A stretch of 64,000 nt of DNA from Takakia lepidozioides (taxonomy: Eukaryota > Plantae > Bryophyta), in contig CM060734.1 of NCBI GenBank assembly GCA_030704615.1, positions 60,264,001 to 60,328,000 of the forward strand. Direction: 5' to 3'. Below, piece after piece: positions 19,801 to 52,005 of the stretch. The position numbers and the translations under genes were made by a program. The notes beneath the pieces are model-generated. The model had not been told where the DNA came from. It did not search any database and saw only the letters and a list, made by a program, of their open reading frames with translations. The first letter of the stretch is position 1. Each line of letters starts with the position of its first letter.

Positions 19801-22800
19801 ATTCTGGATAGAACATACAGGATCAAACAGGTACTTGTTGTATTCTTCATCAGTGTAGCGCACCCCGTTAATAGCCTACATGAACAACACAAATAGCACT
19901 AGTGAATCCCACATAAATCCATCCAGCACTCATGGAAAAAATGTTAGCTTATGACAAGGGATTTGCGTGGTACCTGCTACCAAGTAGGATTTGACAACTG
20001 TGATACAGGATGCACAGAGATATGAATATTTGATAGGTACAACAAAAAGCAGCAGTGACGTTATGGAGTCAAGGAAAGCAAAGCTAATTAGAGCCACAGG
20101 GTAATCATACACCCAAGCTGGACTCTGAGCCTGAAGGTAGTGGTACCTTGTTATATTTCGCAAATGCATAGTCTCCTGAGGGTGGCAACCCATCCACAAT
20201 CCGGACCTGTTCAAGCAACTAAAAAGGTCAGACTTTGCCAACTCATGACTAGATAATGTTTCCTTGAGGCCAATTACAAAACACTGAAGTATTGTTGCCT
20301 AAAGATGTAGTCAAAGGATGAATACGGAATTGCACAGACGGAAGAGAGAGAGCTTACATTTGTCAACCCTCCAGACAACTGTTTTTTATATTGACATATC
20401 AATCCAATGCACACTTTTCCATTGTTGTTCTTCTGTCATAGGCAACACTGCTATAACTATCTATTATAGCCTTAGTCATTCCTACAAACAAACACCAAGT
20501 TCATCCACTCTAACACCAGCTGATGCTTGACACGGAGAAGAACAAACCCAGTGATAAAGCTGCAAGTTATCAGACCGCGCCGATGTTGCAAAAGGAAGCC
20601 ATTGCCATGATATCTGTCCACCCACACATCCAAAGTACTCTGAGAACTTAAAACCCCTCTCTCTCTCCCTCTCTCTCTCCCTCTCCCTCTTCCTCCCTGT
20701 CCTCTAGGAAGCCTATTACTTGATACGGGAGTACATTAATGTCTCTGTGACTAAATGCCGGCCTTGTGACCTCGTGTCCTTGTTTGTTTCGACCTGAAGC
20801 GCTTTGCTCCAGGTAAGGTAGTGCATTGGATTTAGTTGGAAAGCTTGGGGCCTTTCCCTCTTTAGAATATGCCTACACGGGCCATTCCCTGCAACTCCCT
20901 GGAGTGTGATCTCTGAATGGTAACAAGCGGACCCCTACTGCTTGGGGGCAGCCCCTCCGCCCAAATTGGGCAGTCGTATGCTCTGTATAGCATACTCGGC
21001 ACTTGGGCTCGGGTTGGTTCCTGTGCTTAAACTTATAGCCTGCGAGATCAATCAAAACTTTAGCTCCTATTAACATCAACACTCCCCAGGGTGATTCCTG
21101 GGAATTGGTTACTTATGCCAAATCTAGGGCTTCATGTGTAGTTTTTGGGGTGAATCCCAGGATGGACGATGTGTCCCTTAAAACTACATGCTCTAGCTTA
21201 GGCTTGGATTTCATGGCTAATGGTTCCATCTCGAGACTTGATAACAGGGGTACGTTGAAGGTTGCAATGACCAAAAGTGCTTCTAATAGAGTCCCACATC
21301 AATTCAATCTCAAAGAAGTTCGTCCCTTGACTGGCTGGAGAGCGGTCTTAGACATTGGTGATTCAATGGGGCGCTCTAGGAAGACAACCAAGGGCAAGGA
21401 CTTCAACTTGAGAGTTTCTAATCGGTTTGATGCTCTGGATGAGGTTGAATCCAAACAGCCAGAAGACCAAGATGCCCCTAAGTGTACAGAACCTGACCGT
21501 CCTGAATCTGAAGGATTTGGTACTCTGAATGGTTTACCAATCCTCAAGGTTTACACAAGACGAACAAATTCTATACACGGGGTAATTGCCCCCAAGCCGT
21601 CAGACGGACAATCTGTCCCTAAGTGTGCAGAGCCTGAACGTCGTGTAACTGAAGGACTTGGTACTCTAAATGGTTTACCAATCCTCAAAGTCTACACAAG
21701 ACGAGCAAAATCTATACACGGGGTAATTGTCCCCAAGCAGTCTGACGGACAATATGCCCCTAAGTGTGTGGAGCCTGTGCGTCGTGTAACTGAGGGATTT
21801 GGTACCCTGAATGGTTTACCAATTCTCCAAGTTTACACAAGACGAGCAAAATCTACACATGGGGTAACTGTCCCCCCTTTGCAGAACGGTTGGCCGTCCA
21901 GGAGCAATCACAAGCTACCTAGACGACAAACAATTCACATGCAAAGGGCTGGCTTGCGGCTGGCCACTTTCAACTTCTCAGGGCTTACTAACCACAGGAA
22001 ACAACTCGAAGTGGGACAAGTCCTTCGGACTAATGATATTCATATCTGTGCTGGGCAAGAAACATGGGAAACGACGGATAAACTGGTTGGAGATGTCAAT
22101 GGTTATAAATGGGCAGGTAGGATGTGTACTCTCAAGGCAGCCTCTGCCAAACGCAGTCAAAAAGGGGTTGGATTCTTTGTCCGTGATTTCTTGTGTGATA
22201 ATTGTGAAATTATCAACAAGGGTTTGAGGTACGAGCATAGTATCTGGCTGAAACTGAATCTGAAGGGCGGCATGAGTACAAAGGACCTCTTTGTGGGTTG
22301 GGTTTACATGCCCACAGAGGGGACCCTTAGTGCTGACGCAGACAAAGCCTTCAAAGATGTAAAGCTGGACTGTGCTTCGTTCCTTGCCAAAGGTCAGGTA
22401 GTGCTATTGGGTGACTTCAATGCCCGGGTGGGCAAAGGGCTCCATCAGGACGATATCATTGGGCCTTTTGGTGAGGACAAGCTGAATTCTAATGGCAGAC
22501 GGTTAATTAACTGTCTGGAAGAGCTTCAGCTTTTGACCTTGAATAACAGGACAAGAGGTGACCAAGTGCAGTGGACTCGTGAGAAATCCCAAACTGGGGA
22601 ACGTTCCATTGTGGACTATATCATAATGGACAAAAATTTGTTTCCCCAGTGTGCCAATGTGTTGATCGACAGAACTGATATTGGTACCTCTGACCACTTC
22701 CTGGTTTGGACTAAGATCAAACGGTGTTTTCCCAACACCAAGAGATCTGTGAAACGTTCGATTCGGAAGTGGCGCATAGAAAAATTCCGTAATGAGGAGG

Positions 22801-25584
22801 TCAAGGCTGAGTACGTCCAGGCCTTGCAAAAGGCTCTCCCTCATTTTGTCCAATCGCTCCAAGAACTTCAGTCTCGCTCTGACAACGCAAGAAATGAAGT
22901 CGAAAGAGCAGTGGACTCTTGGGAGAGTTCCGTTTCCTCCGTGGCTGACAAGATCATTGGGAGAAAACTAATTGTCTGCGGTAGAGCTGTTAATTGGTGG
23001 ACCAATGAGATCAAACTCAAGATAGCTGAGGGACGAGCCCTTTATAAAGAGTGCTGCAATTTGAAAACCAACAGAGAATTGTGGGCGAGGTACTACCAGC
23101 TCCGTAAAGATATCAATCAGCTTGTTAGGTCTCAGAAGAAATTATACTGGGACAAGCTATACAGTGAAATAAACTCAAACCACCATGGTGATAATGACAA
23201 GAAATTCTGGTTGGCCCTTCAACGTTTGTACAAGCCTAAAAACAGCCAGCAAGTACAAGCGCTGAAGACTACTAAAGGTGCAGTGGTGACTTCATCGGTT
23301 GACATTGTCAAAACCTTTGAAAATCACTACAGTATCCTTGGCAGAACTTCTAGGTCTAACAGTGAGGGGTCTTCTGCTGAATGGAGGGACACAGTTGGAA
23401 AAACTGTTACTATGATTCAAAACAGCCCTGATGAACTGGAGTATATTTCAATGGCTTATAACGCTCCCATTAGTTCTTCTGAGATTGTGGAAGAAATTGA
23501 ACATTTAAATGGATATAAAGCTGGTGGACCTGATGGTATTGTCAACGAGCTTATCAAGCACGGTGGCGATCCCATGATAGAGGCCCTAGTTCTCTTCTTT
23601 AACCTTATCTGGAAGACTGAAATGATCCCCTTTCACTGGCGACAGGGGGTTATTGTCAATCTATACAAGAAGGGTGACAGAGAAGAACCGGGGAACTACC
23701 GTGGCATCACGCTCCTCAATGCTGTTGGCAAGACATTCTGCAGAGTTATAAGTACTCGTCTCGAGGTTGATCTGGAGTCTAGAGGTTGTTTCCACGAAGG
23801 CCAAGCTGGCTTTCGGCGAAACAGGGGCTGTGTGGATCATATCTTCACTCTAAGCCAGATTATCCAGGGAACGAAAAAAGAAGGAAAACCCACTTACGTT
23901 TTTTTCCTGGATGTCAAAAAGGCTTATGACACAGTGTGGAGAGATGGCCTATGGTTCCGCCTCTGGTCTTGTGGGATCAAGGAAAAGATGTGGAGAGTTG
24001 TCCACAACTTGTAAGCTCACACCAAAAGCAGTGTCACTGTTAACGGACAGAAGTCCAACTTCTTTGACATAGACCAAGGTGTAGCTCAAGGATGTACTCT
24101 CTCCCCTCTGCTCTTCAATGTTTTTATCAATCAACTCCTCGAGGATGTGGAAAGTGAGGGATTTGGGTTAAGGGTGGGTGATACCACCATACCAGCCCTT
24201 ATGTTTGCGGATGACTTCGCAGGCATAGGGGAGACTCCAACCAATCTCCAGGAGTTGATTGATTGCGCGAAGAGATACTTTGATCTTTGGGGGCTAGAGG
24301 CTAATGTCAGCAAATGTGCAGTGGTAGCATTCAACGACAGAGGAGAGGGAGGAAGTGATCTTAAGTGGCAGTGGGATAAGCAAGAGATCCCGGTCCTCCC
24401 TTCCTACACTTACCTGGGCGTTGAGTTTTCCTCCAATTGTAATTGGGATGCACATATCCGGAAAGTTGTTCAAACTGGCAAGGGCAAAGCTCTGGGGCTC
24501 ACTAAATTTTTCCACTGCAGAGGGGTCAACTCTGAGGTTAAGAAAACCATGCTTTGTTATTAGACCTGCCTTGGAGTACGGATCTGCTATATGGGTTGAT
24601 AACTCCAACCAGGCTAAGTCTCTAGAATCCATTCAAGTGGGGGTGTTTAAGGAGTGTATGTCAGCATGCTCCAAAACAGCCAATGTGGCTGTTCGGGTGA
24701 GTTTGGCATTCCGTCCTTAAGCTCCCGACGAGATGAATTCAAGGTCAGATGGTGGGGTCAGCTGCAACATATGCCCAACACCAGATATCCTAAGTTAATC
24801 GACTCTATATCTTGGAAACAGGACCGCCCTGTCAAACAGGCTAAGTCCTGGCAGAAGAGAGTAGAAGAGATTCTCAAGGACCTGGACCTGGATCCGCAAG
24901 TCTTGACCCTGCTGGATAAATCTGACTTAGAGGCTGTAGTGTCCGAAGCCATGTCTGTTGCCATGAGATTGTCTGATGAAAATGAAGTTCGGCAGAAAAC
25001 TTCCCTGAACTTGTTTCCAGTCAGTGACATGGGGGAGGACATCTTGGATGACCTCAAGGGTCTACCCACTCTCGGCACTAGACTGAAATTTAAACTCAGG
25101 GCAGAAAGCCTACCTTTGAACAGCAAACAGAAGCTGAGAGGAAAGGGAGAGTGCAATTGCCCGTTGTGTGGGCAATCTGAAGACAGTATTCATTTTCTGA
25201 TACACTGTCCGGGGTTCTCTCACCAAAGAGACGCTCTCTTCAATTCTATCAAGGGAATTGTGCCTGTACCCCTGTTTACCAACTTTGAAAGTCTCGAGGC
25301 TGAGCCAAAAGCCCAGGCCCTCCTGAGGCCTAGTTTTTGGGCAAATAACACACAGCAGATTGATGTTTGTGTGAAGGGATTTCTAGAGGATATCTGGAAA
25401 ACCCGGATTAATTCTTTATATGAAGGTAAGGCTTACTACCAACGTCAGCCCCTGACAGAGGTAGGTTCTGTCCCTTTTGTTCCCGCTCAAACTGGGTGCG
25501 GGGTCAAGCCACAAGGCTACGGCAAACAACGTCTTATGAGTACAATCTCTCTCTCCCTCTCTCTCCCTCTCTCCCTCTCTCTCC

Positions 25585-29849: not shown

Positions 29850-31594
29850 GGGCGGGCCCGGCACCAGCCTGCATTGATACTGACTGCGTCCCTATGGCAG
29901 ATCGGGTCCGGCTGCAACCATGTCTGATTGCACAAACTTGTGTCGCTCCTGCTCCTCTGCTCCAGTACACAGGCAACCACGAGCGGGGGTTCATTAGCCA
30001 TTACAAGTTTGTTCTGCTTCAAGGAGATGCAGTCATTCGCAATGAGACAAACCCCAACCGTCTCAAGCTTTCGAGTGAGAGAACTATCAGACCTACCTTG
30101 TTTTCTTTAGTGTTCAGTGAGCGGGAGATAGGGAGTATTGCTTTGTTTCGACCTGGTAGAAAGAGGAGGACCGGGCACGAGGTGCAGGCCAAAGACGCGG
30201 AGGTCAGGGTGTTGACCAAGGCATGGCCAACCTTTTTCAGCAGCTAGAGCAGAGGCTCGTTGCCATGGCTTACAGCTCAGGCGTGTACCCAGACTCCCAG
30301 GCGGGATGGGTCACCTCCTGCTCTCTGAGGGAGGAGATTGGGGAGGCATGGATTCATGTGCGGGAGCAGCGCTACCACTAGAGCAGGTGGAGTTTGCTGC
30401 AGCCCGTGACCCGAGGCGCAATCACGAGTTCCTGAGCCACGAGGTGCAGAGGTGGAATTGGATCCACAGTGTGGGGAGGCAAGCCGTCAGGCGAGGCTTC
30501 CTCAGTCATTCACATTGCGGAGACTGTGTCGACGCCATCCCAATGGCAACCTAGTTCTCTCGCCGACTGTTACCCGAGGTGGAGGTTACTATGTATTGGG
30601 GAGACTACATCAAACACTGCACCCTGACACCCCTGCTACTAATGCTAGTGCATCTGGTGTGTTATTGGGGGCAGCCACCTTTGTGTGTCAAGCCCACTGT
30701 TCTTGGCAACCATGATTGTGAAACCCCGGGGTAAGACCAGCTGCAGTGTTCAGACAGTAGCAACACTTCACGAGAGTGGGGAGGTCACTTCATCTCTTCT
30801 GCGGGAGTTAGTGGAAGGTGTAGTGGCAGAAAGATCCTCGGATTTGGGTCAAAGACTGCCACGGCGACGGCTTGCGCCCTGGCAAGCTGAGCTGCCAGAT
30901 TGACGGCGCTGCACTATGCCAAGCCTTTGAGCGCGCCATGGTGACACCATGGAGTGTGTCTGTTAGACAACCAGGGAGGCATTTTTTCATTGATTGGACC
31001 GGCAGGCAAGAGGTAACCGGGCTCCTTCGGGTCTTGTTTGGACCTCGGGAGCTCAGCATTGATGTTGGGCGAGCTGCTATCACAGGTTTGGGGGCCTCAT
31101 GAAGGCGGATATAGGAGCTTGTCCTTTCCAGATACGACATCTTTGGGATGATCAGAGCAGTCTCGGGGCATTACGACTGCGTTTGTTTGGCCATCAGACT
31201 GGCAGCCGGATCATCCTAGAGATGGCGAAGAGTGAGCGAGCCAGGTCATTGTGACAAGACGCGGTCCTCTTATACGATGTCCTCGTTGGTGGGGCATGTT
31301 ATACCCATGGGCTTCACCCTGGGACTTTGGGAGGAGTCCATTCTATCAAAGGCCTGGATGCAGTCAGGGAATGGTCATCGTGCACAGCCCCTGTTAACAT
31401 TCATTGGGGGTATTGCGGCGACCCAGCGGGGCAGAATGCCAACACTAGCCTTTTACAGCTGGTCAGTTAGTTGCCTGAGTTGCTGGAATGCATGCCCATC
31501 AGAGGATGTGCCCACCTCCGCAAGCAGGATGACAATGCAATGTTCCGGTGGAGTTGTCCTGCCATGGTTGTGCTCACACGCGATTGTGGGGTAA
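29850..31594 (+). mobile_element. Heavily decayed gag-protease portion of the DNMT-carrying Ty3/gypsy family, cut at 31594 by a younger copy
   Basis: GGMDSCAGAALPLEQVEFAA, ELDPQCGEASRQARLPQSFTL, FERAMVTP and PMGFTLGLWEES match 37100-38700. It stops just before the methyltransferase domain. Confidence 0.88.
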
Positions 31595-32300
31595 TGTCGT
31601 GCGCATACATATCGCTACACAACTACATCGCTGTCCAAAACCACAACACACATGTGCACACCACACACTAGTATATACCACTAGTCTACCACTAGTCCAG
31701 CCACTAGTCCAACCACTAGGCTACAACTAGTCAGTCACTAGGCTGCCACTACGCTGCCCACTATGGCAGTCACTAGTCCACACAATGATAAAGAAGAAGA
31801 ATACAAGCACAAGCTCATGCGAGCTCACAAAGCTGAAGCATAAACTCATGCATATATAACTCATCACTCAAATACAAGTCAAGCCAAGTGCACCCCACGC
31901 CATGGGGAATCCACACTACGGCGCCATAGCTAGGCGCGGTGAGGCTCAACTCGAGAAAGATGAGCCTCCCGCTTTGCCGTGAAGATAACCACTCCAGGGC
32001 CTAAATCTGCCTTGACCCCTGGATTGACACTTGGGCCAATCCCAAATGTCAATATGTAAAAGCTAGCTATTTCCTAGCTAGTTTCACACTAGTGGTAAAA
32101 TAACTTGACAGCTGTCGTGCGCATACATATCGCTACACAACTACATCGCTGTCCAAAACCACACAACACATGTGCACACCACACACTAGTATACCACTAG
32201 TCTACCACTAGTCCAGCCACTAGTCCAACCACTAGGCTACAACTAGTCAGTCACTAGGCTGCCACTACGCTGCCCACTATGGCAGTCACTAGTCCACACA
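31595..32300 (-). repeat. 3' LTR region with A-B-A layout (A = 31595-31786 and 32113-32302)
   Basis: Two near-identical ~190-bp A segments containing ccactagt micro-repeats flank a ~325-bp hairpin-rich B segment. On the minus strand it starts TGTGTGG after PPT+AT and ends CGACA. Confidence 0.85.
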
Positions 32301-32560
32301 ATCGCCCCCCTAGCTGGTGCTTAGGTCCCTCTAAGTCCAGGTAGCCACAAGATGTGATAGTGACCATAGCCTCACTAAGTCCTCCACCACTATCCCTACT
32401 ACACTCAAACTCGATAGATCAAGAGGCCGGGTGCAAGAGTTGCCCCATCGTTAGTCGCCGTCTTGCAACCTGTGAACTTGAGCTTGGGATCTCATGTATT
32501 GACTCCTATGAGCTTGGCCTCCCATGTCTTGTTAGCTGCCTCCAGTCATGTCCACTGCCA

Positions 32561-32705
32561 CTATCCCAAGCAGTGTGGACACAACCAATCTCCGTCAGGA
32601 ACCTTCTCAAGAGGTGGTGTCAAGCATCCCATATGCCAACCCCTTGAGCATCGATCACACACCAGCATGGTGGCTGCCCCTTTGGCAGACCCACAGAGCA
32701 TGCAC
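32561..32705 (-). CDS. PHD finger at the integrase C-terminus
   Basis: CMLCGSAKGAATMLVCDRCSRGWHMGCLTPPLEKVPDGDWLCPHC fits Cys4-His-Cys3. The second copy (60282..60752) has it in frame with the integrase tail. Confidence 0.93.
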
Positions 32706-32749
32706 CTCAAACCTGCAGGTACCACTGCCAAGTTTGGGTCAACTCTCTG

Positions 32750-33830
32750 CCATCGACATTGGGAAGGTGACATGGCGCACAATTACGCACATGGTCCTTC
32801 CAAGTCATGCCATCCCGACCCTCCAAGATCAGGACCCCTGAGGGCAACACCTCTCGAACCCTCAGAATAACACGCCCTGCAGTAACATCCAGAGTCGTAG
32901 GAGCAGTCTGCTGCAAATAAACATAGTCACCAGGGCTAAACCTCCGAACCCCAGGACGATATCCTCCACCACGTATAGTGGCATACCTCAACGTATCACG
33001 GTGCTGTGCAATGGCAAGGTTCTCAAAAGCCATGGGCATGACTTTCTTGAACAACTCTGCACGCTGATCACATGCACGTACCCACACGTCCGGATCGTCA
33101 AGGTTAAGGACTTGAGCAGTGTCCCTACGAATGGCTGCAGGCAAATCCGGCTCTCGGCCAAAGAGAAGGAAATATGGTGAGAAGGAGGCAAGTGATGCTT
33201 GTTTGCTGAACCTGTAGCCCATGGCTAACCAAGGAACCTGAAGATCCCAATCTCCTAGGTGTCCCTTCTGCAAGCCATACTTGCGCAAACCCCTCTTCAC
33301 CGTCTGAACAACTCTCTCTGCTAAGCCATCGGCCTCAGGATGATCCCGAGAAGTGGTGCGGTGGTCTATCAAGGCTTTATCACACAAAAGCCTGAAACTC
33401 CCCCAAGAACTCTCTCCCTTGGTCCGTGAGTACCTCAGCTGGAGCACCAAATCGGCTAAGCACACGATCCAAGAATGCATACGCAGCCCCCTCACTAGCC
33501 TTGTCAGGCAATGGAACCAACTCAATCCACTTGGAGAAGTGCTCCACCATCACCAACACATATCTGTGGTGGCGCATAGTCAGTGGCAACGGTCCTGCGA
33601 AGTCAAGACTCCACCTGTAGCCCAATCCCATGATTGGTAAAGGATGCAACTGTGGTGTAGGGGCGTTGAATGAAGCACGCACCCTGTCACACACCATGCA
33701 CCTAGCCACAAACTGTTGCACCTCTGTATGCATACCACGCCACCAATACTGCCCCTGCAGTAAACTGTGAGTGCGTCGCACTCCAAAATGCCCCAACTCC
33801 TCATGGGCATGCCGCACTAACCGTGCACGC
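32750..33830 (-). CDS. DDE integrase (frameshifted)
   Basis: HAHEELGHFG...CMVC zinc finger; WSLDFAGP, LTDQGREF and DGLAERVVQTVK form the D,D,E triad. Confidence 0.93.
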
Positions 33831-34199
33831 TGTGTGGGTGAGGCACAATCCTCACCCGACCATCCTCCCACACTCGAAGTAGGTGTATCCCCTCCCACTT
33901 GAACCTCTTGGCTCGTTGCAGGATCCGATCCGATCCCTCTCCCTGGCAGTCACAATGGCTGCCGTGTCTCCCGTGCGGAGGTAGTCCAACACAGCCGAAT
34001 CCTCATGTATATCTCTGGCACCACCTAGCTCATCACTAGCCTCAGGGTCCTCAGACACTCCGTCTACAGTCATCCCTGTTGTAGGTCCAATCTGACCTCC
34101 CCCATGCCAAGATACACAAAAATGCAGATGCGTGCCATCCCGGCACCATCTCCTCGTCCGTCTCACCATGCCACCGAGCTCCAGTGTCATCCTGCTGGC

Positions 34200-35490
34200 T
34201 CATGCATGGATTGCGACTCAATCCATCCGCATCCCGATTGACCAAACCCGGTCGATGCACAACCTGAAAGTCATACTCCTGGAGTATAAGTGCCCACCGT
34301 GCAAGCTTCCCCGTAAGCTTGTCTGACTCCATCAACCACTTGAGTGGCTGGTGATCCGTGACAAGGGTGAAAAGATTGCCGTATAGATAGCACCTGAAGT
34401 GTGCCACGGCCCACACTGCAGCTAAGCACTCTCCCTCATATGAGCTGTACTTAGCCTCTGCAGCGTTGTTCGAGCGGCTAGCGTAAGCCACTACGAACTC
34501 TCTTCCCTCATCATCCACCTGTGTGAGCACCGCTCCAAGCCCCAGCATGCTCCAATCCGTATGCAGCTGAAAGGGACGCCCCCTGATAGGTCGTCTCAGA
34601 TAGGCGCCGAGGTCAACCTCGCCTTGAGCTCTTGAAAAGCTCGTTCCTGCTCATCTTCCCACTGCCACTCCTGGTCCACCTTGGTCAGCTTGGTTAGAGC
34701 CTTTGCAATGGTACTAAATCCCTTGACAAACCGTCTATAATAGTTTGCCAACCCCATGAAAGCTCGAACTCGGCTCACATCCGTGGGGCGTGGAATTTGT
34801 GCAATGGCCTCTACCTTAGTCTGCTGTACCCCCATCCTCCAGGATATATCATGTGACCCAGATACTCAATCTGGTTGTGGAAAAACTCACTTCCCCGGAT
34901 GCAACTTCAATCCGTGCGCTCTCAAGCGCTCCAATACCACCTGAAGGTGTCTCTCATGCTCCTCCATCGTAACACTAAAGATGATGATGTCATCTATGTA
35001 GCACCGAGCAAAGTCCACCCCTGCTAGAATCCTATCCATGACTCTCTGAAACTCTGCAGGAGCATTCTTAAGCCCAAATGGTAAGAACCGCCACTGATAT
35101 AGGCAATCCTTGCCGTGCTCATTGATCCCCCAGAATGCGTCTTCTGCTTGTCCGCCTCCTTGATTGGCAACTGGTGATATCCGGATCGTAAATCCAAAGT
35201 GCTAAAGGCCTTAGCATGCCCGATGGCATCAAAGATCTCCTCTGGTGTTGGCATGGCATACTTATCGGACTTGGTCTGACGATTTACAGGCCGGTAATCA
35301 CCGCACATACGTCTCTCCGTCCAATTGCCATAGACATCCTTCTTGGCTGGCATCACTGTGGCTGAAGCATACTCTCCACCAGAGAGCTCCACCAAACCTG
35401 CCTCCCAGAGATCTTGAGTCCTCATCTGAATCAAAGACCTCTCCATGTCACTGTATCTATAGGGTCTCCGAAAGATTGGCGTGTCAGTGG
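34200..35490 (-). CDS. Reverse transcriptase and RNase H (frameshifted)
   Basis: RT: RMCGDYRPVN, FSTLDLRSGYHQ, CYIDDIII (~34980-35003), RAFMGLANYYRRFV. RNase H: LHTDWS..GLGAVL, YEGECLAAVWAV, LVTDHQPL, NRDADGLSR. Confidence 0.94.
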
Positions 35491-36004
35491 CCAACTCATA
35501 TACGGATCTCTTGACCCTTCAGTGCTCCCAAGTCCTTCAAACTGAAGGCAAAGCAATTCCTGTAAGCCCTCAGGAACCGCCGTATACGTCGTCTCTCTCC
35601 TCCGGTGACAATGGGTCCAATGTCAGGCTCCCAATTGTCCTCCGTAACTACAACCTTAAGTCCAGTGGGCTTAGAGGTAGAGGAGCGTCGTCCGTGGTTG
35701 CTATGCGCAACCTCTTGAGCAGTACTCCCTGCCTGCTCAGTCAATGACAAGGCCTCATCCTGCCCCATCATCTCATCCTTGAGGACCTCCTCAACCCGAG
35801 AAGAATCCCCAACCTCATCCATCACAGCCGCCTGCTGGCTGCAACTCCCTCTGAACCTCGAGCACCTCCCACGTGTGCCATGGATGCATGCACCCCGTGG
35901 TCCTCACATGCTCGCCCCCACTCACTGCCTGTACCGTCTCGGTAGGCAGAGAGACCATTGAGGGAAGTGTATTCCGCACTCTGCGTTGCTCAGCCAGAGC
36001 CAAG

Positions 36005-36950
36005 CTGATAATCCAGGTCAAGCAATTGAGATCCATTGCTTGCCCCAACACTTGACGACGTGATGCCTCAGAAAGAGACGACACCGCCGTGGTACCAGTG
36101 GTAAAACCCATTGCCCGCTCACGCTCGTCAGCATTAGGCTCCACTAACTGCTGCAACTGAGCATCCCACAGGAGGCCAGGTCCACTATCCCGGAAAGCAT
36201 GCGATCCTGGGAAGCTGAGCAGTGTAGGTAATGCTGCTCGTGGTTGACCCACCTTGTTGACCACTGCCAAAGGCGAACGGTCATCGTGTCTCACACGTTG
36301 AGACTGCCTCCCTGTGTCCAGAATGTTATCCACTGTGAGATGTGCTGGCCGCTGCACCCCATCAAATGCACGCTTGAGCAGTGCGGGTGGCATCATGTTA
36401 GTCCACCATAGCCGTGGACGATGAGCCCGTGACCCCACTGTAGCTGCATCTAGCAACACTGCTGACCCAAGCCACGACCGGACTTGATGCACACTGGCCA
36501 TCACCCTGGCCCGAGAATCGCCCATCAGTGCACATTCTCCAAGATGTATGCTGGAGATACAGCTTGATGAAGCTGCAAGTGGCGCAAAACCCGCACCATC
36601 TCCCAAAACAGACCCGACCTCGAGTCTCGCAATCCATTGCCATGCCCGGCTGATGAATGCCCTTGGCAGGGCCAACCTGCCACTACCAGATCAATGGAGC
36701 CAACCCGCTCCAAATCCTGCGCCCCCAGCAACGAAATGTCTGCTGGCAAGGCCTGCTGATATCCACGAATTGCAGACACCGACAACAACTCAGGGTACCG
36801 CTGCACCAACTGAGCAACATGGCGAAGTGAAACGCGTCGTGCAGTCTCATCCCTCTCCACATACAGGTAACGCCGAACTCGTACACCTGCCTGTAACACA
36901 GCAGCCAATCCGGTGCTGATCCCGCCAAACAAGTCCAGAAGACAAATGCC
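36005..36950 (-). CDS. DNMT3-like DNA (cytosine-5) methyltransferase domain inside pol
   Basis: Motif I LLDLFGGISTG, II YVERD, IV IDLVVAGWPCQG (catalytic PC), VI YILENV, VIII DAATVGSRAHRPRLWWTN, IX ERERAMGF, X RRQVLGQAMD. One 1-nt deletion follows ENV (~36529). Confidence 0.92.
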
Positions 36951-37399
36951 TTCATCCGGAGACTGCCACACAATAGGTGTGGTGTCCAATGGAGACAATT
37001 GAGGTGGTCCTGGTGCAATCCCCACACTCTCCTCCTCTCCTGACGGTACAAAAGCCTCCACCCAGGCTTGTTGCACCCGTCGATCAGCATCCCGCTGCAA
37101 ATCCTTGCTCGTGCCCCACAATGGAGTCTGAGCAACCATGGTAGGCAACTCCGCCATACCATACATGTCATCCTGCTCTCCCCGAGGTGGTACATCCTCT
37201 GAATGAGCATTGCCCTCAAGCAACTCTCTAGGCCAACTCACTGCCGCGGTGAATGCTGCTAGTGTCGGCATCTTGCCTCGCTGGGCAACCGCAACTCCTC
37301 CTATGAACGTCACAGGGAGCTGCACACGCCGGCCCTCCCCTGACTGCCATGCAGGCCTATAGGAAGCTGACTCCTCCCAAAAATCCAGGGTGAAGCCCA

Positions 37400-38997
37400 T
37401 GGGGTACAACACTGCCCCCCAACCAGGACATCGTATGAGACTGCGTCTGTCACAATGGCCTTGGCTCGCATCACTGAGCCATCTGTAGGGTGATCCGGCC
37501 GTAGTCTGATAGCCAACTCACGCCGCCGTGTCATGCCCCGAGCCTGCTCCGATCCTCCCAGAGACGTCTGTATCTGGAAAGGACAAGGCTCCATATCCGC
37601 CTCCGTGAGGCCCAAGCCTGCAATAGCAGCTCTGCCCAGCATCAATGGCTGAGCTCCCGAGTCCAACAAGACCCGCAGTGGCCGGTACCTCTTCTTGCCT
37701 GCCGGTCCACTCAAACAGAAAATGCCATCCTGGTTGTCTAACATGACAACTCCAGGTGTCACCATGGCGCGCTCAATGGCTGGCCTAGCTGGCAGCTCCA
37801 TCAACCTGGCAGCTGCAGCTTGCCATGGCGCCGCCGTGGCAGTCTTGACCCTCAAATCCGAGGATCCCTCCGGCACTACACCTCCCACTATCTCCGCAGA
37901 AGATGAAGTAACCTCCCCACTCTCACAGAGTGTAGCTGCCAGCCTGAACACCTCAGCTGGTCTTACCCCCGGCGTCGCAATCATGGTAGCCGAGAACAAT
38001 GGAGCCTGGCACACAGATGTGGCCGCTCCTAGCAGCACACTAGCTGCCGTAGCCTTGGCAACACTAGGTAGTGGTGCTACCCGTGTAGCTCTCCCCAATG
38101 GCATAGTAACCTCCGCCTCGGTAACAGTCGGCGAGAACTAGGTGCCATGGATGGCGTCGACACTGTCTCCGCCAATGTGAATGACTGAGGAAGCCTAGCC
38201 TGACGGCTTGCCTCCCCACGCTGTGGATCCAACTCCACCTCTGCACCTCGTGGCTCAGGAACTCGTGCTGCTCCTCGAGTCACGGCTGCAGCAGACTCCA
38301 CCTGCACTAGTGGTAGTGCTGCTCCACACATGAATCCCATGCCTCCCATATCTCCTCCCTCAGGAGCAGGAGGTGGACCATCCGGCCTTAGAGCCGGTAC
38401 CACCTGAGCTGTAGCCATGGCAGCGAGCCTCTGCTCTAGCTGCTGAAGCCGGTTGGCCATGCCTTGGTCAACACCCTGACCTCCGCGTCCTTGGCCACGT
38501 TGAGCTTGCCCTTGGCCTCACCTCGTGGCTGGCCACCTCGTCCTCTCTGGGCTGCTCCACCTCGCCCCGGCCACCATTGTTCCCTTGGAACTGGCCTGGG
38601 CGCAACTCAGGATGCAAACCATAACACGGGCCTCTCCATGCCCGTTCTTGCCACAATGCCCACCTGCAACTGTGCAGGCTGTGCATGTGCCGGCCCTTTG
38701 CCTCCCTCTGGCAATCCTTCTTGACATGGGGTCCTCCACATGTCCAGCACACCACATCCGCCCGTTGTTGGCCAGCAAATGAAGGGAGAGACCCCTGCAT
38801 CTGAGGTCCTCTCTGCCCTTCCCTGAGCTTCACCTGAGCCCCCTTGTTGCCTTGAGCACGTTGAGGTAGTGGTTGGCTAGGAGCACCACTACCCCGTGGT
38901 GTCTCCTTAGCAAATCCCACCATGACCACTCGTTCCTCCACCATGTTGAGCTCTATCCGCTCTGCCAGCAAAAACACATTTGCTAAGGTGGGTTGGG
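37400..38997 (-). CDS. Gag C-terminus with two zinc knuckles, followed by aspartic protease (frameshifted)
   Basis: CWTCGGPHVKKDC, and a second knuckle clearest in the other copy (CGHCDKYGHGDAQC). Protease RVLLDSGAQPLML...YDVLVG. Confidence 0.88.
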
Positions 38998-39497
38998 NNN
39001 NNNNNNNNNNNNNNNNNNNNNNNNNNNNNNNNNNNNNNNNNNNNNNNNNNNNNNNNNNNNNNNNNNNNNNNNNNNNNNNNNNNNNNNNNNNNNNNNNNNN
39101 NNNNNNNNNNNNNNNNNNNNNNNNNNNNNNNNNNNNNNNNNNNNNNNNNNNNNNNNNNNNNNNNNNNNNNNNNNNNNNNNNNNNNNNNNNNNNNNNNNNN
39201 NNNNNNNNNNNNNNNNNNNNNNNNNNNNNNNNNNNNNNNNNNNNNNNNNNNNNNNNNNNNNNNNNNNNNNNNNNNNNNNNNNNNNNNNNNNNNNNNNNNN
39301 NNNNNNNNNNNNNNNNNNNNNNNNNNNNNNNNNNNNNNNNNNNNNNNNNNNNNNNNNNNNNNNNNNNNNNNNNNNNNNNNNNNNNNNNNNNNNNNNNNNN
39401 NNNNNNNNNNNNNNNNNNNNNNNNNNNNNNNNNNNNNNNNNNNNNNNNNNNNNNNNNNNNNNNNNNNNNNNNNNNNNNNNNNNNNNNNNNNNNNNNN
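38998..39497. other. Assembly gap (500 N)
   Basis: Run of N. Adjacency across it is not verified. Confidence 1.
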
Positions 39498-42400
39498 AGG
39501 GTTCGACACACAGCAGAGAATGAAGTGCAAGGACATGTGTCAAAAGAAGAGGACTGGAAACGGCCGTCAAAGGGATGAAAGGCGGCACCCATTTATGAGA
39601 CGGAAAAAGTGGAAACAGAACAACGGCAAGTACAGAAAAACTGAATTCATGTCGCATGTGTGATCCTAGTGGACTATCCAACAGGGAAAGTCCACTAAAG
39701 AAGATAAAAGTTAAAATCCAGTCACACTGATACAGCCAATAGAAAACCAGAGAAAGATCAAGAAAAGGGGGAATTAAGGCGCAAGAGACGGCGTCGTTCT
39801 GAGTAACTGGGCTGTCTCGACAGGACAGGCCATAATGCATAACTTGGAAACTATTGAAGGAGCTAACAGACTATACGCTCGCAATATTACTTACGGCAAT
39901 GGCGGAGACCGAAACGAAAGAGCAAGCAGCGTTTCTCCTTGAAACAATGCTTGCAAGCCCCGCAGGCTTCACAAGAGTCCCATACCTTTCTACCTTTCTG
40001 CGGCAACCATACTTTTCCTGCTTGGTGCACTACAGGCATTCCTGTAGTTGTTACCAGCCAAAGCAGTTCTGTGAGTCTAAGATAAGAGAGTGAGAGAATG
40101 GAGGAAATCAGGGTGAAGAGCAACACCATTCTGCAAAAACACCGATGGCTACCACCCCACAGGCGATAAAGATAGTGAAGGAGCTGAGATTGGAAGGATT
40201 GCAAAGCATGGATTGGACACACACCATAGACAGTACATGTTACAATTTTTGCAGAACTTTTGAGCCAAAGACAGGAACAACAACAGTTGAAGGAGTTTAA
40301 TTAATGATTAACTCCCCTATACCTCCAGCAATTGTTTTTCATTGCCAGAAGGTCATGTGTCTGTGGAGGAACACAGAGAAAGACTGCAAAATAGGGGATT
40401 TATTCCAAGAAGGGAGTTTCTTTAAAACTCAGGTTATGATGCTTGTACCAAAGCTGTGTACCCGGGTTAAAAGACATAGCCAAGTATTGAACGTTCTGAT
40501 GCCCTGAAACAGAAACCAACAATTTTGAGCAGATCCTTCACAGAGGAAATCCTCAAGGGCTTGAGGGACAAGAGGTACCATGGGCGGACATAATGTACAA
40601 CGCACTGGTAGAGGAGATGAAAGATTACAAGGTACTACCGCAAAATCTCCTATCATAGTGTCTGGCCCAATCATTGCTCAAATAATCCTTAGTTCTGGCA
40701 TACTTAATGCACACGAAAGGAAGGAAATGGGAGTGTTTGACCAGAAACAACTGCAATGGAAGAGCAGGCTCTTCACACAGTGAGGTGGACTAGCAGCACA
40801 ACCCGAGACTAAGAGGCGAGAAGGGAAAGACTGTAGTGGCGATCCACTGGCTTCACGGATTCCGCATTGATAATGTTTTTCCCAAGCTCAATGACCCGGG
40901 GGGCACAACAGCACAAAAGAATGTTATTACTGGAAGCAGGACCTTCAGATAGATGAGGAAGAAGTTACTTCTGCATCACAACCAACCAGCCACTTGAACG
41001 ACTTGTCACAAGGTCACAAGTTATCCATGCAGCTCAACCCGAATAATAGATTTGGAAAGTGAAGGGTAGATTTCCAACTACAGAACAGATAGTGGCGGAA
41101 ATAGAGCAAGGGGACCTTCTCTATGAATATCTGGTCTGGTCAAGCAGACAGAAATCCCAGAGGTGCAACAGTTACCCAAGAAAAATCCTGAGGTACATAT
41201 AATGCACACACCTGTGTCGGAGATACCACAGGCGGAAGGCCATGACACTGTAGCACCGGTCATAAATGAAGTAGTTCAGGAAGAAAATCCGGGGGACAAT
41301 GGTCCTGAATGGTTTGAGACATCATACTGTTGAAGATCGGGAGGAACAGCAGCAACCTCACCATGATGACCCTCAACAGGCAATGCTGATGAATTCCATA
41401 GGAAGACACTTAATTGTTGGGGACTTATGTCAAACCCATGTTCCAATTACCCCAATTGACAGCCTTGAAAGAAGAACTCAGGAAGGAGTTTGAGGGCTCG
41501 ACTTGCCACTGAGTGTTCAAACAAGGTCGATGAAGAGGTCACTCTTCAAGATGAAGCAGGACTTGGCCAATACATAAATGGCTTTGCAATTGGCCAAGCA
41601 ACAATTGATTGAGGCAGGCCTTGCGCAAGACCAGTTGCACGAAGCACATAAGCAACAGCTATACCAAATGCAGGTGCAGCATGAAACATTTACAACTATG
41701 CTTGACAAACAACAAAAGAAATAAACAGTTTTTTTCAAGCGGAAAACAAAAAAAAATGTTACGAAGGCAGAAGAAGAGAATGTGGAGCACATGAAGCTCA
41801 TTGTCGATATGAAGAATACAATCTGTCGCAATGAAGATACTTTCAAGCAATACAGGCAGATGGAAGCTGAGAATGAGAAATACATCGTGGAGTTGCAACA
41901 AACCATCGTGGGCCAATAGAAATGAATCGCGGTCAGTAACAAGGCTTCGAAAGAAGCCAATAATTTACTTGCTGCCTATGCGCAATTGGTTGAGCCACAG
42001 GCGAAGCGCATGAAGGCTTTACAACAGCAGTGGAATTGTATAAGCTAAGAGAGAGCAAACTCTCAGGGGAACCACAAGCAGCTTGGTGGATAACTAGCCT
42101 TATGCAGGTCTGGTTAGCACAATGGCCAGTAGAGGGCAAAAGCCCACGGAGCTCACCCAAAGCGAGATGAATGAGCTCAGACTGCAGGTGCAGAAACATT
42201 GCCACAACTACTATAGACAATGTCTATAGTAGGATCGCAGAGTTACAAGAGGATGTAGACGACTCCAGACTCAAGTAGAAGACCTCACTTCAAACATCGA
42301 CCAAAGAGTCTATATCCCTCAGGAACAGCTAATGGCTTCTTATTTGCAGAGCCAGAACTCTGGCTTTTCAGTCTTCACAGGAGGTGCAGGAGATGCCAAT

Positions 42401-44749
42401 GGTACAGGAACCAGTGTAAAACCACCACCAACAACAGTCAGGTCCAGTAGCTGAACCTGTGGTTTACAACCAACCACACCACCACAGCCGGAGGTGGTAT
42501 GGGGCAATGCAGCTTTTAACCCACCTAAAACTCCAAGCTGCCAGGAGTACAGTAGGGCTATGATTATGCCCTTCAACCAAATTCCATCATGTTGGATTTG
42601 GCTTTGGAAAGAATTTAGTCCTCCGCAGTCATTCGCACATTACTACCAAATCATGCGTATCTGGCTGCCAGTGGCAAACCAGGACTAAAGTTCTTCCAAA
42701 CAATCGACATATTGAAGATCATCACTTTGCACAATACTGGCACGAGGCAGGTACCATGTTGAGGAATTGGTTGCTTTCCAGGTTGTACATGGACTCATTT
42801 ATACCAAGACCAAGAGAGATAGCAAGTATTGTCATGGGGTGCGGGCTATACTACGCTGCTTGTTTCCTGATACGTTACCACATAGAGCAACAAAAGATGC
42901 AAGCACGATTTCAAAGTTACTCCAGTGGAGACATTGGGTATTAACCTTCGGTGCCACCTCATATGTACCTATATGACCCAAAACTTATGATACAAAAGGA
43001 TTCTCAAATTCGTTCATGGTTTCAAGCAGCCTGCAACAATTTGTCAACACACAGAAAAATTCGGACTTGATGACATTTTCTAAAGGGACATATCGCATGA
43101 AATAATTGCACGCCGGCACCAGTTAATTGGTACCCCACTCATCTGGACAGACAAGGAGCTCAGTGTCTACACCAATTTTGCTGTTCAACGGTTACACCAA
43201 GTTGTAAAATGCAAAACTTCCAGACAGGTTAGGACAGCATTGTATGCCCCAGATGATTCCACAAAAAGTTCGAAAATTAAAAACACTGAGAGGCGATGAG
43301 GATTCTGATACAAACTGTTTCTTCACAAAATTCCTTTTGACATGGGAGAAGACTATGCATTTCAGATGGAAGAAAAGAAACAAAGGGGATCTCCTATGCC
43401 GGAAAGATTACCTCGATATCAACCTCCAGAAGGCCTCACTTATCCAGGTAGTGATCAACCATCTCCATCAACCAGAGACATACCTCGGGCTCGTACACAC
43501 AGCCCACCACGAACTCTCAACGTCAACAAGGTGCTCACTCACAAAGGGTTGCTACTCGGAAACAGTAAACCGTGAGGACACGCTTTTTGAGGGGGGGGGA
43601 AGGGGGTAATGTTAGAGGACTGTAGGGGACTTAGACACTTATAACGGGATCTGTAGGGTACCCTAATTTTTGCACAGACTGAGACAAACAGGAACCTTAG
43701 GGGTGACAGCACGCGCACTGTAGAGGGGGTTACATAGCCCACACAGCCGACACAGCAGCACAGCCCACACAGCCAACACAGCCCGTCACAGTCGTCACAA
43801 CCCACACAGCCCAACAGCCCGTCACAGTCGTCACAGCCCACACAGCCGTCACAGTCGTCACAACCCACACAGCCAACACAGCCCGTCACAGTCGTCACAG
43901 CCCCCCACACAGCACGACACAGCCGTCACAGCCCACACAGCCACACAGCCCGTCAACAGTCGTCACAGCCCACACAGCCGTCACAGTTCGTCCAGCCACA
44001 CAGCCCACACAGCCCGTCACAGTCGTCACAGCAGACACAGCCCACACAGCCAGTCACAGCCCGGCACAGCCACACAGCCAGTCACAGCCCGACACAGCCA
44101 AACACAGCCAGTCACCGCTTGACACAGCTGTTCACGATAATAGGGAACGAAGAGTAGGACAGGGAAACGACTGTGGGGAACAACACCAGTGAAGGGAACA
44201 TGTTAGTTCACATACGACGGTTAGAGAGGGAAACGGTTAGAACCGCGGATAGGAGGATAAAGGGAAGAACGGGGAGTAGGAAAGGGATCATTATTCGGGG
44301 AGGACTTTGGAGACAGGCGGGAGCGGAGATCGGAGAGCACGATGAAGGAGAAAAGAGGATTAGTAGATGCTTGTCATATGCAAAGCTAGAGTGATATTGT
44401 AGAGCAGATTAGAGACATAATGGATTCGGCCTGATACCTGATAAATCATAATCTGATACTTATACGATACAATCACACTGTGTAGAGAGATCTGAGTGAA
44501 GCTGTGGATTGAATGGAGGAGTTAAGGAAACCGATAAATTGATGAAGCAAACTGATACTTAATTATCAATGGTAAGGTAGCTAAGATGAATGCGGAAAAG
44601 GAAACAATAGGAACACCCCCATGATACACTAGCTGTAGGTCATGACTGATTGTTCTGCGCGGGCTGAGTACTTAGAGATTTCCAACTCTTCTATCTTGGA
44701 GTTTCCGCCTCGGATAGCGAAGGGATGGGTGAGTAAAAGCCGCGCGACA
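39498..44749 (+). mobile_element. Second LTR family: indel-riddled accessory ORF, PPT (43589-43609) and 3' LTR (43610-44749)
   Basis: Inverted homologue of 46393-51590. PPT gaggggggggaagggggtaa. LTR TGTTAGAGGAC...CCGCGCGACA with an internal cacagcc/gtcacag array. Confidence 0.88.
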
Positions 44750-44750
44750 T

Positions 44751-45278
44751 TCATCTCTGCCCGATCCCCTCTCCTCCATGACCAAGAAGTCCTCCTCCGA
44801 ATGATATCCCTCAATTCCCCGTTTCTCCCTTTATCTTCCTATCCGTGGTTCTAACCGTTTCCCTCACTAATCGTCGTCTGTGAACTAACATGTTCCCTTC
44901 GCAGGTGTTGTTCCCCACAGTCGTTCCCTGTCCTACTCTTCGTTCCCTATGATCGTGACAACTGTGTCAAGCTGTGACTGGCTGTGCGAAACTGTGACGG
45001 GCTGTGACTGGCTGTGCGACTGTGTTTGGCTGTGTCGGGCTGTGACTGGCTGTGTGGCTATGCCGGGCTGTGTCGGCTGTGACGACTGTGTCTGCTGTGA
45101 CGACTGTGACGGGCTGTGTCGGCTGTGACGACTGTGACGACTGTGACGGGCTGTGTAACCCCCCTCTACAGTGCGCTGCTGTCACCCCTAAGGCTCCTGT
45201 TGGTCTCAGTCTGTGCAAAAATTAAGGGTACCCTACAGATCCCGTATAAGTGTCTAAGTCCCCGACAGTCCTCTAACA
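44751..45278 (-). repeat. Partial inverted LTR (5' part) of the second family
   Basis: Matches 46812-47426 and ends ...CCTCTAACA at 45278. Confidence 0.88.
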
Positions 45279-46100
45279 ATACCATAAGGGAAATGCAGAA
45301 GAGTACTGATATTCCTGTGGCAGATTCCTCTGATTCTGATGGAGAAGAAGAAGTGAGTGAGGATGAAAGGAAGAAAGAAGATGTAGGCATACAAAGTAAT
45401 GAAGGGACTTTGGCTGAAGTAATATGCCAGACCAAAGCAGAGATTACCATTGGACAGCTATTGGCTGTGGCACCTTATTGTAGGCACAGGCTGTATCAAG
45501 CAATCAATCGAATTGCCCAGGAGACAGGAAACACAGACCTGAACAGCAAGGTGACCAGTTATAATGTGAAGCCGGAAGGGCGAGAAACAGTCATGGACTT
45601 TGATGATTCTATGCCAATAATCCAATTGAGAATTGGAAGCACAGAACTAACTGATGTACTGATAGATGGAGGTTCTGGAGTAAATATCATGACAGACCAA
45701 TTAAGAAAGAAGCTTGCTCTAAGTAACATGAAACCAGCCCCATTTACAGTAACAATGGCAGATCAAAGAAGTGTACAGCCATTGGGATTAATAAGAGGAG
45801 TTAAGATACAGATACAGAAGATGATCTTTATGATCACAGTAATTGTGTTGAAGATGGATGAAGTCATGGAGGCTTACTCCTTATTATTGGGACGTCCGTG
45901 GCTGAAACAGGCCAGGGTATTCCATGACTGGAATTCTCAGTTACTAACCGTGCATAATGGGATACACGAGATACAAATTACCACAAAGAAATCTAGTAGA
46001 TTACCTGCTACGAAAAGACCTCGAGGAGTCAGAGAGTATGACTGGAGAGGAGGACTGGATGAGGAGCAGGAAGCTACCCTATTTGCTGCACACCCAAAGT
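45279..46100 (+). mobile_element. Ty3/gypsy gag-end and aspartic protease fragment
   Basis: ITIGQLLAVAP, VLIDGGSGVNIM and YSLLLGRPWL in ORF 45116..46108. Confidence 0.88.
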
Positions 46101-46392
46101 GGTTGTGATAGGCTGTGTTGCGCCGTGCTGGGCTGTGATAGGCTGTGTTTTGCCTTGATGGGCTATGATAGGCTGTGTCACGTCGTGATGGGCTGTGATA
46201 GGCTGTGTCAAGCTTGTTCTGCCCGCCCTGGTCATATATACTCGGCCTAGCGACAAGTGCTCCATACTCCGTTCGTAACACTGGCGCAGCCCGTGACTGC
46301 TCTTGCGTTTCAACATGCAAATCATGCTGCAATGATTTGTCATGGATACCACTGTATCCCTTCAACTTATTAGCATTGACTCTTCCCAGCAT
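46101..46392 (-). mobile_element. Probable integrase C-terminal tail followed by the 30-bp tandem array
   Basis: GRVNANKLKGY resembles the gypsy INT terminal motif. It is followed by the same array unit as at 51700-52005. Confidence 0.6.
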
Positions 46393-47465
46393 TGTCGCGC
46401 GGCTTTTACTCACCCATCCCTTCGCTATTCGAGGCGGAAACTCCAAGATAGAAGAGTTGGAAATCTCTAAGTACTCAGCCCGCGCAGAACAATCAGTCAT
46501 GACCTACAGCTAGTGTATCATGGGGGTGTTTCCTATTTGTTTTCCTTTTGGTATTCATGTTAGCTATCTTACCATTGATAATTAAGTATCAGTTTGCTTT
46601 ATCAATCTATTGGATTCCATCAGCTCATCCATTCATTTCACAGCTTCACTCATATCTCTCTACACAGTGTGATTGTATCGTAAAAGTATCCGATTATGAT
46701 TTATCAGGTATCAGGCCGAAGCCATTGTGTCTCTAATCTGCTCTACAATATCATTACATCCTTGCCTATATCAAGCATCTACTCATCATCTCTCTATCTT
46801 CACTTCCGTTCCTCATCTCTACCCGATCCCCTCTCCTCTATCACCAAGAAGTCCTCCTCCGAAAATCCCCCCTTCAATTCCCCGTTTCTCCCTTTATCTT
46901 CCTATCCGCGGTTCTAACCGTTTCCCTCACTAACCGTCGTCTGTGAACTAACATGTTCCCTTCGCAGGTGTTGTTCCCCACAGTCGTTCCCTGTCCTATT
47001 CTTCGTTCCGTATGATCGTGACAGCTGTGTCAAGCTGTGACTGGCTGTGTGAAACTGTGACGGGCTGTGACTGGCTGTGCGACTGTGTTTGGCTGTGTCG
47101 GGCTGTGACTGGCTGTGTGGCTGTGCCGGGCTGTGTCGGCTGTGTTGGCTGTGTTCTGCTGTGACGACTGTGACGGGCTGTGTTGGCTGTGTCGGCTGTG
47201 ACGGGCTGTGTTGGCTGTGACGACTGTGACGGGCTCTGTTGGCTGTGTCGGCTGTGACGGGCTGTGTTGGCTGTGTTGGCTGTGACGACTGTGTTGGGCT
47301 GTGTAACCCCCCTCTACAGTGCGCTGCTGTCACCCCTAAGGTTCCTATTGGTTTCAGTCTGTGCAAAAATTAAGGGTACCCTACAGATCCCGTATAAGTG
47401 TCTAAGTCCCCGACAGTCCTCTAACATTTACCTCTTCCCCCCTCAAAAAGCCGTGTCCTCACGGT

Positions 47466-51674: not shown

Positions 51675-51699
51675 TGATTCTATGGATCGTGTAACTTTA

Positions 51700-52005
51700 G
51701 TAGGCTGTGTTGAGCTGTGACAGGCTGTGTCATACTGTGTTACGCTGTGATAGGTTGTGATGCACTGTGGTAAGCTGTGATAGGCTGTGACACGCTGTGG
51801 TAGGTTGTGATAGGCTGTGTTGCGCCGTGCTGGGCTGTGATAGGCTGTGTTGCGCCTTGCTGGGCTGTGATAGGCTGTGTCACGTCGTGATGGGCTGTGA
51901 TAGGCTGTGTTGCACCGTGCTGGGCTGTGATAGGCTGTGTCACGTCATGATGGGCTGTGATAGGCTGTGTTGCGCCTTGCTGGGCTGTGATAGGCTGTGT
52001 CACGT
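51700..52005. repeat. 30-bp tandem array (gataggctgtgttgcgccgtgctgggctgt and variants)
   Basis: Periodicity is directly visible; translates as repeated TQPITAQHGA / TQPITAHHDV. Confidence 0.92.

Follow-up and report, generated by a model that had tools for sequence, protein, structure and literature searches.

The Ty3/gypsy element KnitGypsy-Dnmt3 of Klebsormidium nitens carries the same gypsy domain set as the elements described here, with a C5 DNA methyltransferase in the polyprotein (PMC5890265), and its repeats are arranged as in DIRS elements according to a figure legend (de Mendoza et al., PMC5890265). The accessible part of that account contains no primer-binding site (PBS), mode of priming, RNA structure, junction palindrome or replication model, and the accessible main text no PHD finger (PMC5890265). 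As described, Tf1, Tj1 and Tcn1 have a PBS that adjoins the 5' repeat and is complementary to about 11 or more internal bases, with no tRNA involved (PMC7175516, PMC4600332, PMC6317226); in Tf1, it is the initial 11 bases that anneal to the PBS, with the RNase H cut following them (PMC7175516; PMC4600332). PAT, Ngaro and VIPER elements are described with split direct repeats in the order A1-ORFs-B1-A2-B2 (PMC4157794, PMC7192593), foamy virus integrase as cutting a palindromic end-to-end LTR-LTR junction (PMC1180852), and the gypsy element Gypsy-7a_cRei of Chlamydomonas as possessing LTR 'subparts' and a PHD finger, although with a left and a right LTR (10.1101/2022.06.16.496473). Troyka (PMC12440569), as far as its accessible description goes, is not relevant, as its ends differ.

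We analysed a 64,000-nucleotide stretch of the Takakia lepidozioides genome (the window; GCA_030704615.1, contig CM060734.1, positions 60,264,001 to 60,328,000), in which a first-pass annotation had described a multi-hairpin structure in three diverged copies. The structured segment is repeat A, the terminal repeat of a plant Ty3/gypsy retrotransposon with split direct repeats. On its sense strand the element reads A1–ORFs–PPT–B1–GC–A2–B2 (PPT, polypurine tract), with TG…CA ends and 4-bp target duplications, and its domain set is gag–protease–C5 methyltransferase–RT–RNase H–integrase–PHD. The three copies are not all of one kind: copies 1 and 2 are internal 3' repeats, located at the 3' end of minus-strand elements, whereas copy 3 is a 5' repeat followed by a PBS. 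The features, in window coordinates, are:

31595-31786, minus strand: B2, terminal short repeat and right end (…CGACA) of element 1, 98% identical to 32113-32302 and joined to the flank
31787-32110, minus strand: A2 of element 1 (copy 1), starting TGTCA
31878-31885, minus strand: X2, the nearly invariant motif GGCUUGAC, in copy 1
31888-31916, minus strand: bulged hairpin of copy 1, which holds stem 1
31943-31949, minus strand: Y, which forms the 3' arm of stem 2 and adjoins the predicted primer on its 3' side
31950-31963, minus strand: predicted self-primer in the stem-2 loop of copy 1, placed by position homology with copy 3 and related loci; its PBS lies outside the window
31994-32082, minus strand: stems 3-5, inverted repeats in the predicted U3/promoter part of A
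32106-32117, no strand: palindromic B1-GC-A2 junction of element 1, the predicted integrase site
32113-32302, minus strand: B1, internal short-repeat copy of element 1
32303-32311, minus strand: PPT directly before B1 of element 1, at the same position as in related loci
32320-38997, minus strand: degenerate internal region of element 1 with Pfam matches for integrase, RNase H, RT and C5 DNA methyltransferase
38998-39497, no strand: run of N, the assembly gap that takes the 5' end of element 1
53107-53120, minus strand: PBS after copy 3, complementary to 53283-53296 over 14 pairs, one of them G·U
53121-53460, minus strand: A1, the 5' repeat of the third element (copy 3), starting TGTCA at the genomic flank
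53283-53296, 53195-53221 and 53185-53192, minus strand: primer, bulged hairpin and X2 within copy 3
59499-59585, minus strand: B2 of element 2, a short variant 93% identical to B1
59586-59934, minus strand: A2 of element 2 (copy 2)
59769-59782, 59666-59694 and 59656-59663, minus strand: predicted primer, bulged hairpin and X2 within copy 2
59930-59941, no strand: palindromic B1-GC-A2 junction of element 2
59937-60023, minus strand: B1 of element 2
60024-60032, minus strand: PPT of element 2
60040-63808, minus strand: internal region of element 2 with PHD finger, integrase, internal deletion and protease-region homology, running past the window

Differences in flanks and primer rule out copy 3 as the 5' repeat of element 1, and it is no TRIM or solo LTR, being followed by a PBS rather than by B. 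Elsewhere in the window, a plus-strand fragment of the same family (30187-31594) abuts element 1, which suggests nested insertion, and the leader after copy 3 is interrupted by a nested, partly inverted block of another repeat family (39504-52973) that holds ACACAGCC-type arrays and a gag-protease-like ORF. Two further features are a LINE-type endonuclease-RT ORF at 21039-24563 and, at 8161-8733, a fragment with a metacaspase-like caspase domain.

The Pfam models rve, Integrase_H2C2, RT_RNaseH, RVT_1 and DNA_methylase match element 1, and the protease-RT-RNase H-integrase order of Ty3/gypsy is present. Instead of the identical LTR at each end that defines Ty3/gypsy elements, the arrangement is A1…B1-A2-B2; the PPT, which precedes B1, lies before the 3' LTR if the LTR is read as B-GC-A. 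With a C5 methyltransferase in a gypsy polyprotein and DIRS-like repeats, the element is likened by description to KnitGypsy-Dnmt3. Its PBS adjoins the 5' repeat and is complementary to about 11 nt inside, as in Tf1. However, Tf1, Tj1 and Tcn1 as described are chromoviruses with plain LTRs at both ends, whereas the Takakia elements have a permuted LTR, a primer within a hairpin closed by upstream bases, and an integrase whose C terminus is a PHD finger with no chromodomain match, unlike the domain content of the Tf1/Sushi/Tcn1 clade. PAT, Ngaro and VIPER, in the accessible descriptions, have a tyrosine recombinase and lack integrase and target duplication, whereas Takakia-type elements have an rve integrase, TG…CA ends and 4-bp duplications; two uninterrupted relatives encode the rve integrase and no tyrosine recombinase among the 6 ORFs scanned. 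The element is Tf1-like in priming layout without being of the Tf1 clade by domain content, and PAT/Ngaro-like in its repeats without being PAT/Ngaro by enzyme.

Related loci (L numbers) came from an integrase search of metagenome contigs, of which the best 80 of 308 loci were used, mostly from one family (family M). Integrase DNA identity is 60-74% between families, and the distant loci L083 and L084 have an integrase identity of 46-52%; proteins of Marchantia polymorpha are among the close integrase relatives, and an Astrephomene protein is a more distant one. Four full-length relatives (L020, L035, L041, L052) carry A at the 5' end too, in the order A1-ORFs-PPT-B1-GC-A2-B2. Target duplications were scored on relatives with both ends, the other ends of the window elements being missing, and were exact in 8 of 11 cases, had one mismatch in 2 and were absent in 1. 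Public DNA contigs of the source organism show loose, low-agreement ends at the B end and at the start of A, as expected at element termini. Among viral contigs, the stem-2 motif had 0 matches and integrase searches gave no confirmed match.

Several features of these loci stand beside the repeats. Seven contigs from prokaryotic bins (L081-L087) encode this eukaryotic retroelement and are likely misbinned; in the distant relative L085 (5833-6264), the methyltransferase match is placed not before RT but between RNase H and integrase. In L059 (5083-5091), L082 (3489-3497) and L057 (near 4660), a single in-frame TAG stands between the gag-protease-methyltransferase ORF and the RT-RNase H-integrase-PHD ORF, and in L059 and L082 this stop is followed by CAR-YYA, a leaky-stop context. 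The usual gypsy integrase motif is HPQxNG; before the catalytic Glu, the integrases here read HPEADGLAER (window 33440-33480; L059) or, in the distant group (L083, L084), HPQADGLAER, a deviation that might be related to junction recognition. A hairpin just 5' of the PPT has a folding energy of -20 to -23 kcal/mol in L059, L071 and L081 and is weaker in the window (32312-32345, 60033-60066), at -11 to -13 kcal/mol.

Turning to repeat A itself, all 16 stem arms quoted in the first-pass annotation are found in the three copies where it had placed them and pair by Watson-Crick rules, except that 1 of the 11 pairs of stem 4 in copy 1 is G·U on the minus strand. Relative to dinucleotide shuffles, folding is strong for copy 1 (z of -7.26 on the minus and -6.69 on the plus strand) and copy 2 (-6.71 and -5.74), and weak over the equivalent span of copy 3 (-0.38 and -2.67). 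The compensatory changes that had been claimed across the stems hold for some of them when copies 1 and 2 are compared: 2 of 6 pairs of stem 3 are changed on both sides, and the 11 pairs of stem 4 show one two-sided change, two one-sided changes and 0 broken pairs. Stem 2 is invariant (0/6 pairs changed), and stem 5 is kept solely in a shifted register, with 3 of 7 mapped pairs broken, and in its quoted form has a pairing probability of 0.00 in copy 1. In its quoted form, stem 1 has low pairing probabilities in copies 2 and 3 (0.06-0.43), but it proves to be the upper half of a conserved bulged hairpin. Variant positions in public contigs do not avoid the stem arms (7/25 among the variants listed, against 35% expected; p 0.32).

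This bulged hairpin consists of a 5-bp lower stem, a GAUU bulge and a 4-bp upper stem, located 3 bases before a nearly invariant GCUUGAC. We aligned it over 11 rows, namely the 3 window copies, 5 family-M copies, L059, L081 and L082; the family-M rows were picked from 30 for an intact pattern, and among those 30, two were without a match and one was mis-registered. When whole repeats were aligned across families with MAFFT, the register was wrong upstream of the core, and this alignment was excluded from the counts. In the hairpin alignment, 97% of 99 cells are paired and 18 cells carry two-sided changes, and the outer three pairs of the lower stem occur in five different Watson-Crick forms, fully compensated. 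The score was 0.638, compared to 0.283 in shuffled alignments (0/500 as high) and at most 0.339 in slid controls, and two pair-type measures were not above shuffles (71/500 and 137/500); RNAalifold, unprompted, returned the same structure. The U·G pair adjoining the bulge is invariant in 11/11 rows, which fixes the strand: contrary to the earlier statement that wobble pairs do not settle it, this pair and the coding strand both identify the minus strand of the window as the working strand. A lower stem, a short conserved bulge and an upper stem near the RNA 5' end are also seen in hepadnaviral epsilon and HIV TAR; the resemblance is in shape only, and the bulged hairpin has no Rfam match.

The most informative pairing, missed in the first-pass annotation, is between the stem-2 loop and the bases directly 3' of A1. 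Among 37 family-M copies of A with an intact 3' end, 19 run into B and 18 rows (16 distinct) into one conserved sequence, which is complementary to the stem-2 loop in the loop's 3' part. Across the 16 distinct A1 copies, at least 10 pairs form in 9, 7-9 in 5, and 5 in the remaining 2, in which the hairpin was not found; random 25-mers reached 10 pairs in 2/1488 cases and never more. Copy 3, which starts at the genomic flank, continues into its own, different 14-base complement of its stem-2 loop, and L059 and L082, representing a third family, have the same primer/PBS layout in a third sequence. With positions fixed by homology, within-element runs measure 14 in copy 3, 11, 11 and 16 in family M, 12 in L082 and 15 in L059, compared to cross-family runs of 2-5 (the 5 one-way, with family-M primers) and 8-9 for L059 against L082. 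The primer sequences are unrelated among the three families, and all end in AG. RNAfold forms the primer/PBS duplex in copy 3, L047 and L082, and its probability was 0.71-0.99 in all 7 A1-type RNAs folded. As complementarity to the PBS extends beyond the predicted start in L020, L059 and copy 3, the primer length is uncertain. The distant group yielded one 12-bp inverted match in L084 and none of at least 10 in L083.

In family M, L059 and L082, a TATA-like box precedes a C|A at the primer start by about 29 nt, counted by eye; no clear TATA box was seen in the three window copies. Copies 1 and 2 share TTATCTTCACG on the minus strand (31974-31985 and 59803-59814), 27-32 nt before the predicted start, the position at which the other families carry the TATA box.

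From these sequence comparisons, we conclude that repeat A carries a real, selected RNA structure, in line with the fold proposed originally, for which 'priming' and 'packaging' were among the options listed, and that this structure is best explained as a domain for self-priming and for the binding of RT/Gag in a gypsy lineage whose LTRs are permuted. Probably, the fold serves self-priming of reverse transcription in the manner of Tf1. The transcript would begin at the stem-2 loop or slightly before it, its initial 12-14 nt would anneal to the PBS, and RNase H would cleave behind the conserved AG, with the bases next to the cut possibly pairing with GCUUGAC; the bulged hairpin would likely be bound by RT or Gag, and the second primer copy, in the 3' repeat, would be concealed by the upstream arm of stem 2.

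A different origin can be envisaged for the stems, as promoter palindromes acting at the DNA level or by-products of RT template switching, with the primer/PBS match a relic and priming achieved in another way. Stems 3-5 fit this description: these near-perfect inverted repeats fold on either strand, precede the predicted transcript start and cannot be aligned across families, and palindrome-rich LTR cis-regions are known from maize Sireviruses, as the accessible account describes (PMC4728375). For stems 3-5 this explanation probably holds, and they are more likely to be promoter-region palindromes than part of the priming fold. As an account of the whole repeat it is improbable, as it leaves unexplained both the three unrelated primer/PBS pairs in one register and the strand-specific U·G pairs and two-sided changes of the bulged hairpin.

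The bases following the primer have a predicted partner of their own in X2. Those 3' of the primer are complementary to GCUUGAC, via G·U in the window and family M and by Watson-Crick pairs in L059, L081 and L082, and the folds predict the Y:X2 helix for copies 1 and 2, for L059 and partly for L022; it was not predicted in copy 3, L008, L047, L072 or L020, and reached only 0.2 in L082. A long-range pairing of the start of A with X2, seen in folds of the window copies, was set aside, as only the 4 bases shared with the end motif recur in other families. The pseudoknot originally proposed, between the stem-3 loop hexamer and the upstream motif, is not supported: the variant in copy 2 produces an A·C mismatch with the loop hexamer on the sense strand while keeping Y:X2 complementarity, and indeed improves pairing with the 3' arm of stem 2; moreover, neither stems 3-5 nor the hexamer can be aligned to other families.

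Another reading would make the segment a self-cleaving ribozyme or IRES with this pseudoknot, a possibility that the high folding z-scores and the presence of the hexamer in the stem-3 loop of 3/3 window copies would favour, as would a transcript start upstream of stem 2, which would demand cleavage to free the primer. Such an identity is nevertheless very improbable: besides the disrupted pseudoknot in copy 2, the hexamer is absent from that place in other families, the Rfam check found no match in the region (E up to 5) or in three relatives, and in Tf1 the corresponding cut is made by RNase H, as described (PMC7175516). A likeness to the hairpin ribozyme on the plus strand was likewise ruled out by the lack of an Rfam match.

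The position of the PBS after A and of the PPT before B implies that the ordinary LTR is B-GC-A and that the cDNA reads B-A-ORFs-B-A. Genomic copies instead begin at A and end at B, that is, at an internal palindrome, GACA-GC-TGTC, at the B-GC-A junction, which is also present in L057, L059 and L081-L084. Within an element, B1 and B2 resemble each other more than they do when different elements are compared (permutation on 13 pairs, 1 and 0 of 20000), and since the two track each other, B2 is made anew in every cycle on the same template. Of 19 rows, 16 have an exact A2/B2 join and 3 carry extra bases there, two of them with PPT-like endings. B upstream of the 5' end was seen in 0/15 visible cases, and we rejected a symmetric two-LTR circle, which predicts some A-B-A-ORFs-B forms (p of about 0.002, calculated by hand, if one form in three is expected). 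After automatic de-duplication, ends with a single B numbered 21, compared to 15 B-A ends; these may be products of one-LTR circles or B1×B2 recombinants, or, less likely, the result of assembly collapse. Two contigs (L059:8560-9040; L082:6950-7430, with a 127-base terminal overlap) read PPT-B-GC-A-PBS, the one-LTR-circle form; they probably represent collapsed assembly of young copies and possibly real circles.

We propose that the PBS and PPT yield a normal cDNA with B-GC-A as its LTR, that the two cDNA ends become joined, which would give the A2/B2 join, and that the integrase likely opens the internal palindrome, so producing the permuted arrangement, its TG…CA ends and the 4-bp duplications. 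The asymmetry might arise, speculatively, if RT jumped template end to end and strand displacement then ran as far as the first junction. Foamy virus offers a parallel, but as described its junction arises only in 2-LTR circles and the provirus is conventional, whereas in the split-LTR gypsy elements the junction is hard-coded in the LTR and sets the element ends. On the sequence features described, integration at the internal junction is reasonably probable. Alternatively, self-priming would occur as proposed, but the ends would be rebuilt in the manner of DIRS/Ngaro, the growing strand jumping template on the internal B1-A2 junction and the integrase using the free ends of linear cDNA with no palindrome cut. 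The A-B-A-B order of repeats in PAT/Ngaro (PMC4157794) and the internal complementary region needed in the DIRS-1 cycle (PMC7192593), both as far as described there, are consistent with this route, as are the precise joins in 16/19 rows, and it requires no circle, in keeping with the 0/15 count for the symmetric-circle form. We consider it unlikely, however, because minus-strand DNA primed at the PBS would start at the end of A, so that B2 at its 5' end would need joining or a homology-free jump, and because extra bases at 3/19 joins, two PPT-like, are as expected of an end-joining product.

Taken as a whole, a split-repeat gypsy element whose A fold acts in Tf1-like self-priming and whose LTR is permuted is, on the comparisons made here, likely to be the best explanation. 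We lean, with less assurance, towards the view that a self-priming gypsy clade of the green lineage no longer has its integrase site at the cDNA ends, having shifted it to a palindrome hard-coded in the LTR, every insertion being a circular permutation derived by cutting a joined-end intermediate. Within the literature covered, with subscription journals and Repbase reports mostly outside its scope, the split repeat layout was found only in a single legend of PMC5890265; Gypsy-DNMT3 is also mentioned in the accessible part of 10.64898/2026.05.21.726589. No description of priming, RNA structure or a permuted-LTR mechanism was found for this gypsy lineage in the sources as accessible, and an earlier description is possible.

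These findings supply a widespread lineage with a specific, testable mechanism of priming and with an RNA structure; LTR-finding tools should miss this lineage because its repeats are permuted. They also point to a natural case in which a retroviral-type integrase would have an internal end-to-end junction as its normal substrate, long debated for 2-LTR circles. The permuted-LTR reading, with a PBS after A1, lends itself to direct checking in PAT/Ngaro elements, and for DIRS-1 the primer is still given as unknown in the accessible account (PMC7192593). If true, the proposed cycle would be an integrase-based counterpart of that of DIRS/Ngaro and would offer a general model for the priming and rebuilding of split direct repeats.
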